Shown one piece after another: positions 1 to 11,100 of a stretch of 64,000 bases of DNA. This DNA comes from a virus. The translations under genes and the position numbers were made by a program. The notes below the pieces were generated by a model. The model was not told the origin of the DNA. It was given only the letters and a program-made list of their open reading frames with translations, and did not search any database. The stretch's first letter is position 1. Each line of letters opens with the position of its first letter. The stretch lies in the IMG/VR virus record IMGVR_UViG_3300037418_003024, positions 1-64,000 of that record; one strand, written 5' to 3'.

Positions 1-79
1 CTATCATTCGCAAGGAAGCCGCAGGGCGAGGTATGGATCTAAAAGCAGTTCAGGCAGAAATTGATAAGAGGATGCCGTA

Positions 80-535
80 ATGTCGGACAAATGGCGTGGC
101 CAATTAATCGATGGGCTATTCGGCTACGACTACGATTATGTTTGGTGCCCGCGCAAGCTATTAGAGGCTCACCCAACAGTAGTGCGCAGTGTAATGAGGT
201 CGGTCACGCATTTCAATGGCCGAGAATATCTTCGACGAATTGGATGGCGAAACCGATTGATTTTTGACGTTTTGAAAATGTCCTACGTCAGCCATGATGG
301 AAGCCAAGCGGTTACACTACGCCAACTCGTAGCGTATAGGACTAGTCAGAGCGGACCACGTGACAGATGTCGTGAATTTGCGAAAGTGCGCGGCAAATCA
401 GCACTTGTTTCGATGTCTGCCCGTGATGCTTGGTACACGTGGTACTCAGGCATTCGCAAGGTGGAATCGTTTTACTGCCACGCCGGGCCGAAACAGCGTG
501 AAGAAAGCGGAGGACAGGTCGGATGGTACGTCTGA
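80..535 (+). CDS. Hypothetical protein
   Basis: 151-aa ORF with GAGGA upstream; no recognised motif. Confidence 0.5.
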   Translation: MSDKWRGQLIDGLFGYDYDYVWCPRKLLEAHPTVVRSVMRSVTHFNGREYLRRIGWRNRLIFDVLKMSYVSHDGSQAVTLRQLVAYRTSQSGPRDRCREFAKVRGKSALVSMSARDAWYTWYSGIRKVESFYCHAGPKQREESGGQVGWYV

Positions 536-10386: not shown

Positions 10387-10567
10387 GGTGAAGATGGCGC
10401 CGACCATCGTCAAGCGTTGCGAGAAGTGTAGCTGCCCGGTCGTCAAGAAGACGTCGACCGGGCGCTTTCTCATCAACGGCAGCAATGTTGCCCTAGACAC
10501 TTCCACGATGACGGCTTCGGGAAAGTGCCCGCGGTGCAACGAGGATTATTCTGTCGTGCTTAGTTAA
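10373..10567 (+). CDS. Small zinc-ribbon protein, Mu Com-like
   Basis: RCEKC...KCPRC in 64 aa; GGGAGG RBS before GTG. Confidence 0.6.
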   Translation: MQAIKVKMAPTIVKRCEKCSCPVVKKTSTGRFLINGSNVALDTSTMTASGKCPRCNEDYSVVLS

Positions 10568-10626
10568 AGTTCAGGGCTCGTTTCTTAACTAAGCGATCTC
10601 ACGATAAAGATTTGCGCCTTTTCATC

Positions 10627-10654
10627 ATGATAACCCCCTCAAAATGCCGTATAC
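10627..10654 (+). promoter_or_regulatory. Putative phage-sigma promoter (ATGATA-N15-CGTATAC) upstream of the RNA cluster
   Basis: Matches the recurring motif; intergenic. Confidence 0.5.
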
Positions 10655-10669
10655 CTACATCTGAACGAT

Positions 10670-10840
10670 GGCTGCGACGGTGTGGCGGGTGACACCGGAA
10701 CGCTTATGGCCGGGTGATGTTCCGCTTGCCGCCTTATCAACGGCTTGCGATGTGATCATCCTTAAACCAGGGGTTCGTCAGGGTGGTGAGGGCTGATAAC
10801 CCCGATCCCTAATAGCCGGTTCGAGTCCGGCTCGTAGTCA
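10670..10840 (+). ncRNA. tRNA-like structured RNA, 171 nt
   Basis: 8-bp terminal stem GGCTGCGA/TCGTAGTC, D-like arm CGGTGT/ACACCG, canonical T arm GCCGG-TTCGAGT-CCGGC, three extra internal hairpins. Confidence 0.7.
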
Positions 10841-10846
10841 GTCTAT

Positions 10847-10921
10847 CGCGTTGTAGAGCAGCCTGGTAGCTCGTCGGGCTCATAACCCCGAAGGTCGTTG
10901 GTTCAAATCCAACCGGCGCGC
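10847..10921 (+). tRNA. tRNA-Met(CAT), initiator-like body, atypical
   Basis: Near-identical to the bacterial tRNA-fMet core (GAGCAGCCTGGTAGCTCGTCGGGCTCATAA), T arm GTTGG-TTCAAAT-CCAAC; extra C in the anticodon arm, C1-G72 pair, no encoded CCA. Confidence 0.85.
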
Positions 10922-10922
10922 T

Positions 10923-10997
10923 TTCTGTGGGGCCTAGGGGCCTCATGCGCATTGGAGACAGTGCGTTGCCTAACCAGCAGGGCTAAGTCCCACAGAA
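10923..10997 (+). ncRNA. Structured RNA element after the tRNA
   Basis: Closing stem TTCTGTGGG/CCCACAGAA and internal GNRA hairpin GCGCATTG-GAGA-CAGTGCGT. Confidence 0.45.
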
Positions 10998-11100
10998 TAA
11001 TCTTATAGCCGTAATTTTGGGCTGGCTGCCCCTGGAGCTTTTGGCTCATCGCTCTGCCGCATGCGGGAGGGTGGTGGGCCTTTCGTCATTTGGAGGGCGT

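Follow-up and report, generated by a model that had tools for sequence, protein, structure and literature searches.

A tRNA-framed RNA with complementary isoleucine-type loops upstream of phage head genes: a candidate non-decoding tRNA mimic

The locus and the tRNA frame of element A

The window analysed here comprises 64,000 nucleotides, the first 64 kb of the 94.7-kb IMG/VR phage record IMGVR_UViG_3300037418_003024. It contains, upstream of the head genes, a 171-nt RNA element framed by tRNA ends (positions 10670-10840, plus strand), here termed element A. The phage is temperate and tailed, with genes for an integrase, RecT, a primase-helicase, at least two sigma factors, a terminase-like protein and a portal. 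The terminase/portal system is of the ordinary tailed-phage type, and head protease, scaffold and capsid genes are located at 11.5-15 kb. The record is labelled 'linear, 83% complete'. Window positions 1-266 are repeated at G000 94375-94640 of the record with 99.2% identity, and the genome is therefore probably near-complete, circularly permuted or terminally redundant.

Element A lies in a 450-nt gap free of open reading frames (ORFs; 10568-11016). A tRNA starts 6 nt downstream and is probably co-transcribed with it. This is an initiator-like tRNA(CAU) (10847-10921, plus strand; Rfam tRNA 53.6 bits) with a GGG/CCC stem. Its CAU is located either in an 8-nt anticodon loop or next to a bulged extra C (CUCAUAAC-CCCGA), and ARAGORN reads a four-base anticodon 'cata'. 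The exact anticodon arm of this tRNA has 0 matches in IMG/VR. Directly 3' of the tRNA, a 75-nt hairpin element (10923-10997) closed by an 11-bp stem and including a GAGA tetraloop helix has a fold z-score of -3.5; it contains CUCAU and is without Rfam match. The head genes follow. The original prediction, made from the sequence alone, had placed element A as the first product after a putative late promoter, a claim that finds no support, as no sigma-70-type promoter was found upstream. The only terminator-like site between element A, the tRNA and the head genes is the T arm of the tRNA itself. A small ORF encoding a CxxC...CxxC zinc ribbon (10397-10567) ends 102 nt before element A.

The outer frame had been described as an 8-bp acceptor-like stem on a perfect T arm (8/5 geometry) together with a 6-bp D-like arm, and this description holds. 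The 5' strand of the acceptor stem (GGCUGCGA, 10670-10677, plus strand, as are all parts of element A) forms 8 bp with 10832-10839, two of them G-U. The 3' strand (UCGUAGUC) and the discriminator base A10840 together occupy 10832-10840. The outermost pair, G10670 with C10839, is like a -1:73 pair, and CCA is not encoded. The T arm GCCGG-UUCGAGU-CCGGC (10815-10831) is perfect and displays a consensus T loop. RNAfold gives a D arm of 6 bp (CGGUGU/ACACCG, 10678-10697), which can alternatively be read as 4 bp (GUGU, loop GGCGGGUG, ACAC; 10680-10695) with a 2-nt linker and a GG-containing loop. The D and T arms are separated by ~117 nt, in agreement with the ~115 nt proposed to replace the anticodon/variable region.

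To assess the frame against chance, a strict version was defined as a consensus T arm, a 7/7 acceptor closure required within 55-215 nt and a D arm. It was found that this occurs once in 200 dinucleotide-shuffled genomes. Hence, the tRNA frame at 10670-10840 is real and beyond chance. ARAGORN recovers element A only with introns allowed and a lowered threshold, and such a relaxed call is not significant by itself, given 0.45 false calls per shuffled genome. The tRNA-Ile(UAU) with a 93-nt intron called in this way has a mismatched stem (A-A) and was rejected.

ARAGORN in default and tmRNA modes makes no call on element A, and Rfam returns nothing at gathering thresholds or E<=10 except for a spurious YrlA alignment. 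This bears out the proposal of a non-canonical tRNA-framed RNA gene outside known families. Judged as a canonical bacterial tRNA, element A has the acceptor stem, a GG D arm and a GTTCRANYC T loop. Position 26 is not followed at once by an anticodon stem of 5 bp with a 7-nt loop, ~90 additional nt take the length beyond the 72-95 nt of such tRNAs, and RF00005 is unmatched even at E<=10. The 8-bp acceptor and 5-bp T stem fit tRNA-Sec and the rest fails, as there is no UCA anticodon, single long variable arm, ~95-nt length or Rfam match, and the loops are GAU- and UAU-type. For tmRNA, ARAGORN -m and the Rfam tmRNA families are negative; by inspection the pair 3-70 is C-G or U-A and not G3:U70, and no plausible tag frame is seen. 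Group I introns in tRNA genes measure at least 200 nt, are self-splicing, contain a P1-P9 core and interrupt the anticodon loop. The insert in element A (~60-90 nt) is too short for this and has no Rfam intron or ribozyme match, which upholds the earlier statement on size as far as a group I intron-containing tRNA is concerned. An attP site can also be rejected, the integrase being 38 kb distant.

Two kinds of phage-borne small RNA were considered as relatives. YrlA and other Y RNAs (RF02553) are Ro60-bound tRNA mimics of bacteria and phages, YrlA being circularly permuted relative to tRNA. The YrlA alignment reaches 21 bits against a threshold of 69 and spans the T arm of element A plus the D arm of the next gene. 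No TROVE/Ro60 gene is present in the phage genome, and a Ro60 partnership is thus rejected. Species 1 and 2 of T4 (rnaC and rnaD) are small stable RNAs whose genes lie within or beside phage tRNA clusters and which mature along with the tRNAs. No similarity of element A to such RNAs was detected, no Rfam family being matched at E<=10.

Internal arms, five-armed tRNAs and a homologue

The region between the D and T arms can be divided into alpha, beta and gamma parts. A local hairpin around GCUUAUGGCC, a UAU-type motif at 10703-10709, can form in the alpha region (10698-10722) through its GAAC...GUUC. The minimum free energy (MFE) structure instead has the same GAAC joined to GUUC at 10773-10776, which creates a long arm of 79 nt, the two alternatives lying within 3 kcal/mol. 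The beta hairpin GCCG(C)-CUUAUCA-(A)CGGC (10728-10744) has a UAU-type loop (10733-10739) that contains a codon-like AUC; in the MFE structure the loop C-CUUAUCA-A (10732-10740) tops the irregular 79-nt arm. Element A thus has two UAU-type motifs, at 10703 and 10733, with G or C at position 37. Further 3', UGAUCA (10753-10758) is self-complementary, and a 7-bp helix GGGUGAU/AUCAUCC is formed within the element.

The gamma arm (10781-10810) has the core GGG-CUGAUAA-CCC(C) (10790-10803), with the loop at 10793-10799 and GAU as anticodon. Its sequence GGGCTGATAACCCCGA (10790-10805) is identical at 15 of 16 positions to the anticodon arm of the neighbouring tRNA (GGGCTCATAACCCCGA). Therefore, the hairpin before the T arm is, by sequence, an initiator-type anticodon arm reading GAU (isoleucine) through a CAU to GAU change, with the neighbouring tRNA as its likely donor or sibling. 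This near-copy had escaped the first reading. The accompanying statement that element A has no clear anticodon is half true, given a textbook Ile-type CUGAUAA loop on a GGG/CCC stem and two UAU-type motifs. Three consecutive G-C pairs closing the anticodon-type loop are also found in bacterial tRNA-fMet, from which element A differs by GAU in place of CAU, a fully paired 8-bp acceptor stem and the 90-nt insertion. A role as initiator tRNA for AUC starts was rejected, since Shine-Dalgarno motifs are not enriched before AUC (0.075 vs 0.081 overall and 0.124 for ATG, in a crude test).

The beta and gamma loops are complementary, as UUAUCA (10734-10739) can form 6 Watson-Crick bp with UGAUAA (10794-10799). 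Mutually complementary hairpin loops had indeed been predicted, with CCUUAUCA (10732-10739) pairing over 8 bp with UGGUGAGG (10784-10791). The former is a loop, the 8-bp complementarity exists, and on paper it is the stronger of the two pairings (RNAduplex -8.9 vs -4.4 kcal/mol). However, UGGUGAGG is not a loop, forming the 5' strand of the extended GAU-arm stem in the MFE structure, and the pairing has no counterpart in the homologue described below. The conserved partner is CUGAUAA (10793-10799) in the next hairpin. C37 in the UAU-type loop is abnormal for a decoder of A-starting codons, yet lengthens the pairing to the GAU loop. The complementarity looks intramolecular.

A search of IMG/VR with the pattern TTATR-N-CTGATAA-N-GGTTCRANTCC gave 93 stretches, among them 20 distinct genes (L036-L114, alignment A3) of 89-97 nt, called tRNA-Ile(UAU) by default ARAGORN. 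The order of parts in these genes is an anticodon loop CUUAUAN, U-U-A-G, a 4-bp hairpin with loop CUGAUAA, a normal variable spacer and the T arm. It is the second, GAU-displaying hairpin that stands at the normal anticodon-to-T-arm distance. Compensatory changes are seen at 21 of 25 base pairs, the extra hairpin included, and all five stems covary. The five-arm family is real and resembles a tRNA in which two anticodon arms are arranged in tandem. No description of such tRNA-Ile(UAU) genes with a GAU hairpin was met in the literature searched.

As in this family, a UAU-type loop (CUUAU..) of element A precedes a CUGAUAA hairpin, which borders directly on the variable spacer and T arm and lies as far from the latter as an anticodon arm normally does. 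Both have 'U(U/C)AG' before the GAU hairpin and both are phage-borne. In contrast to the family, element A is ~80 nt longer at 171 nt, has a GGG/CCC initiator-type GAU arm, and does not pass from the D arm straight into a 5-bp anticodon stem with CUUAUAN, its CUUAU motifs being displaced. Furthermore, family members keep A37 where element A has C37 in its UAU-type loop.

A covariance model (R1) and a profile hidden Markov model were built from alignment A3. On element A, R1 gives no full-length match and a partial one over the GAU and T arms (model positions 46-83; 15.1 bits, E 0.003). Two matches were obtained with the profile model (nhmmer), the first linking 10791-10835 to family positions 48-87 (10.7 bits). 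The second places 10718-10777 on family positions 16-75, ungapped over 60 nt, with CUUAUCA aligned to the anticodon loop, GUGAUCA to a decayed GAU loop and GGGGUUCG to the start of the T loop. The score of this inner match was reached by 0 of 1000 dinucleotide shuffles. The beta hairpin aligns weakly to the UAU anticodon arm of the family (8.8 bits, E 0.13). The inner part can accordingly be read as a degenerate partial copy of a two-anticodon-arm tRNA-Ile, also missed by the original prediction. Element A as a whole reads as family positions ~1-38 (by inspection) followed by 16-75 and 44-92. Such an order would result if parts of the gene had been duplicated internally twice, or if a tRNA fragment had been inserted. 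The remaining features of the element would be explained by subsequent divergence and by an exchange of arms with the adjacent tRNA.

Relatives of element A were sought with the pattern GGGCTGATAACCC-N-GGTTCRANTCC. Most matches are ordinary tRNA-Ile genes or tRNA fragments at attachment sites, and one is a clear relative. This 142-nt homologue is located in a metagenome-assembled genome (MAG) of a member of the Gemmatimonadota (JAKFCC010000159.1, L291:13707-13848, minus strand). Its acceptor stem has 7 bp and leaves position 1-72 unpaired. After the D arm come, in this order, a 5-bp hairpin with CCUUGUGCC in its loop (CUUAUGGCC at the equivalent place in element A), a second 5-bp hairpin GUGGC-CUUAUCA-GUCGC, a 16-nt linker, GGGG-CUGAUAA-CCCC, a variable spacer of 5-6 nt, the T arm and the acceptor 3' strand. 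The CUUAUCA loop is identical to that of element A on a stem that differs, including a C-G to G-C exchange, and the complementarity to the CUGAUAA loop amounts to 7 bp (UUAUCAG with CUGAUAA).

The 3' half of the homologue resembles annotated tRNA-Met genes, and its unpaired 1-72 position is initiator-like. The Rfam tRNA model covers the 3' two-thirds only, below threshold (23.3 bits), and R1 finds the GAU and T arms at 29.4 bits. The gene stands alone after a strong terminator, with neighbours (a matrixin-type peptidase, a PAS protein and a lectin/esterase) that do not look phage-derived. Its CUGAUAA-type arm occurs in 1 of 401 sampled Gemmatimonadota genomes.

Because MAFFT aligns the parts inconsistently when given the two sequences alone, element A and the homologue were compared part by part. 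We estimate the chance of a 5-bp hairpin with exactly CUUAUCA in a 72-nt insert at ~3e-5, or ~1.5e-3 over the 46 candidates. The same part order and two identical, complementary 7-nt loops in two very diverged sequences thus point to constraint. The homologue collection recommended with the original prediction has hence supplied one member; with identical loops, it offers no covariation.

Other searches were less productive. With blastn against GenBank phages only the neighbouring tRNA-Met was matched, and the exact T-arm/acceptor pattern of element A has 0 matches in IMG/VR. The pattern CTTATCAA...CTGATAA...GGTTCRA found chance matches and ordinary tRNA-Ile genes only. Among the matches listed for a long-gap pattern, there were otherwise only tandem tRNAs, and just the window closed 7/7. 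An Arthrobacter phage match to the homologue was set aside, as it looks like an attP-type 3' fragment of an initiator tRNA. A 184-nt tRNA-framed element within a tRNA array of a Ktedonobacteraceae MAG (L284, ~770-953) combines a GGGCUGAUAACCC arm with an insert of 104-125 nt, and its D arm is directly followed by AUCAG, a 5-nt complement of CUGAU. Although possibly related at a distance to the design of element A, it was not counted as a member, AUCAG lying in a stem and the acceptor stem being weak.

A candidate tRNA mimic and the alternatives

Given that a similar gene exists in a bacterial genome of soil type, element A is probably a working tRNA look-alike and no decoder. In its specific form, as a processed, non-decoding tRNA mimic with a self-paired isoleucine anticodon loop, this interpretation is offered tentatively, as plausible rather than probable. 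Isoleucine- and initiator-type tRNA genes would be the sources of the element. In the 3' third, an initiator-type anticodon arm would have changed from CAU to GAU ahead of a canonical T arm and acceptor strand, and the middle would derive from a partial, now degenerate copy of a two-anticodon-arm tRNA-Ile. If expressed as a co-transcript with the tRNA 6 nt downstream, the RNA would be released by RNase P, trimmed at its 3' end and given CCA, because the acceptor/T minihelix and the D/T elbow that tRNA enzymes act on are intact. It should not fit a ribosomal tRNA site, because ~90 nt separate the D arm from the anticodon-type arm.

Pairing of CUUAUCA with the element's own CUGAUAA loop would create a built-in duplex resembling codon and anticodon (AUC with GAU). 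An isoleucine-type anticodon loop, borne on an initiator-type stem, would thereby be either presented or hidden. Element A would most likely be a bait, a competitor or a regulator acting on a factor that recognises the anticodon loop of tRNA-Ile; isoleucyl-tRNA synthetase (IleRS), an anticodon-loop modifying enzyme and a host anticodon nuclease are candidates. The suggestion of a decoy had already been made with anticodon nucleases in mind. A decoy or mimic remains the most reasonable guess, with the nuclease as one candidate target among several.

A number of observations weigh against this interpretation. The overall fold energy of element A is unremarkable (z = -1.1) and its folding is ambiguous, with alternatives for the middle part within 3 kcal/mol. 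The D-arm core is non-canonical, with C for U8 and G for A14 and A21, which could equally mean decay. At -4.4 kcal/mol the UUAUCA/UGAUAA loop duplex is weak. Four of its 6-7 pairs (UUAU with AUAA) are automatic when UAU- and GAU-type Ile loops coexist, as they do in 20/20 five-arm tRNAs, a point that the first reading had likewise missed. Special to element A are just the C-G and A-U pairs added by CUUAUCA, the five-arm family having CUUAUA-N. Only two members are known, both with the same two loops, which amounts to conserved complementarity and not covariation.

Furthermore, a tRNA-like element or large gap upstream of the head genes is absent in 7 distant capsid-relative loci, drawn from IMG/VR, metagenomes and GTDB genomes and leaving out the closest capsid relatives (67% identity, ENA contig). 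A partner protein was not identified.

If the loop pairing forms and matters, element A would exemplify a tRNA mimic, found in nature, that carries an 'anti-anticodon' clamp in cis. This would be relevant to the manipulation or evasion, by phages, of aminoacyl-tRNA synthetases, tRNA-modifying enzymes and anticodon-nuclease defences. Taken further, element A and its Gemmatimonadota relative could represent a class of 'self-masked' tRNA-shaped RNAs, in which a GAU initiator-type stem-loop is paired in cis with an AUC codon-mimic hairpin, an extension we regard as rather improbable. Such RNAs could mimic a P-site initiator tRNA bound to mRNA, or act as a switchable bait for IleRS or an anticodon nuclease, with a clamp gating access to the anticodon.

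The points on fold energy and D-arm core apply equally to an alternative in which element A has no function of its own. It would then be a decaying rearrangement product, formed by internal duplications or fragment insertion in a five-arm tRNA-Ile together with gene conversion from the neighbour. The profile matches (~1-38 + 16-75 + 44-92) are as expected from two tandem partial duplications. The non-canonical C8, G14 and G21, the fold z of only -1.1 and the lack of the element in distant capsid relatives also fit a relic. In addition, fragments of TGATAACCCC are scattered over the locus: this 10-mer has just two occurrences in the 94.7-kb genome, the second one in the leader of element A (10628-10637, plus strand, 33 nt upstream). 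However, the outer frame is still perfectly paired, with its 8-bp acceptor, 5-bp T stem and consensus T loop. The inner copy has diverged greatly while new stable helices have formed, among them the 7-bp GGGUGAU/AUCAUCC. Moreover, an independent, highly diverged homologue retains the same parts and identical loops. On balance a relic appears unlikely, though well worth considering. Element A would in that case demonstrate internal tRNA duplication and arm exchange within phage tRNA clusters.

About as doubtful is an interrupted tRNA gene. Here an insert of ~70-90 nt between the D arm and the GAU arm would be cut out by some protein endonuclease and a ligase to give a tRNA(GAU) of Ile or initiator type. 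The pairing of insert and anticodon would define the substrate, as anticodon-intron pairing does in eukaryotic pre-tRNAs. When introns are allowed, the ARAGORN reading of the homologue is a tRNA-Ile(GAU) interrupted by 72 nt; excising these leaves only one mismatched stem pair (C-C), a better tRNA than element A yields. The phage uses AUA, AUC and AUU codons, AUA making up 10% of its Ile codons.

Excision was simulated by a deletion screen of element A (last kept 5' base idx 26-69, resuming at least 20 positions on and up to idx 145, ARAGORN default). The products of deletions near idx 27-120 pass the default threshold as tRNA-Ile(GAU). However, all called excision products, whether tRNA-Ile(GAU) or (UAU), carry 1-2 anticodon-stem mismatches such as A-A, and none of the contiguous deletions yields a tRNA with a fully paired anticodon stem.

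Inspection of element A revealed no regular bulge-helix-bulge motif of archaeal type, in which a 4-bp helix lies between two 3-nt bulges at the exon-intron junctions. A 4-bp helix UUAU/AUAA with flanking unpaired bases is present, its register off by one and its outer helix weak. In size the insert falls far short of a group I intron, as noted above, and both splicing endonuclease (PF01974) and RtcB (PF01139) are absent from the phage record. To our knowledge, protein-dependent tRNA splicing is not established in bacteria, and we know of no bacterial intron site at position 26/27.

A precedent for unusual inserts in phage tRNA genes does exist in the 'enigmatic' introns of Lak megaphages, which are not group I and of which one is itself tRNA-like (Devoto et al. 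2019, PMC6784885), comparable to the inner copy in element A. Those inserts were predicted, with tRNAscan eukaryote settings, to be anticodon-loop introns of otherwise normal tRNAs (PMC6784885). In element A, by contrast, the insert separates the D arm from the anticodon-type arm, and no clean tRNA remains once it is removed.

A tRNA-like leader or punctuation element of the late (head) transcript, recruiting RNase P to separate or stabilise the tRNA and head mRNA and lacking any role in trans, is highly unlikely. The 450-nt non-coding block, in which element A, the tRNA and the third hairpin precede the head genes with no separating terminator, fits such a function. The homologue, in contrast, is solitary after a strong terminator in a neighbourhood that does not look like phage, and conserved Ile-type loops are unneeded for punctuation.

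The least credible explanation is a pRNA-like molecule whose copies would join into oligomers by kissing loops, in the service of folding or DNA packaging, as the analogy with phi29 pRNA, GOLLD and ROOL had implied: two complementary loops, the self-complementary UGAUCA and downstream head genes are present, but none of these families matches element A in Rfam even at E<=10, its architecture differs, its complementarity looks intramolecular, the phage has an ordinary tailed-phage-type terminase/portal, the homologue lies outside any recognisable phage head module, and the originally proposed partner segment UGGUGAGG is not conserved there.

Further tRNA-framed genes

Standard tRNA finders and Rfam miss many tRNA-shaped phage genes, and further cases were encountered in the course of this work. 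The same phage contains a second tRNA-framed RNA outside the window, an intergenic 129-nt gene on the minus strand (G000 93417-93545; L009:1418-1546). Its acceptor stem (7 bp) and its T arm are both perfect and its D arm is of Leu type; a further ~45 nt contain hairpins, among them GCCGGG-CUGAUCC-CCCGGC. This RNA is not called by Rfam or default ARAGORN.

Streptococcus-associated contigs (L244-L263 in IMG/VR, and L280 from Streptococcus hepaticus) carry an unannotated tRNA-like gene missed by default ARAGORN. A Leu-like D arm is followed in this gene by ~25 extra nt (GGGGCGCAUGCGCAAAGCG), a perfect CUGGG-CUGAUAA-CCCAG arm and a T arm. Finally, a tRNA-Ile(GAU) gene in another IMG/VR stretch (L240, ~324-480, minus strand) was found to contain an AT-rich insert of ~80 nt inside its D loop.

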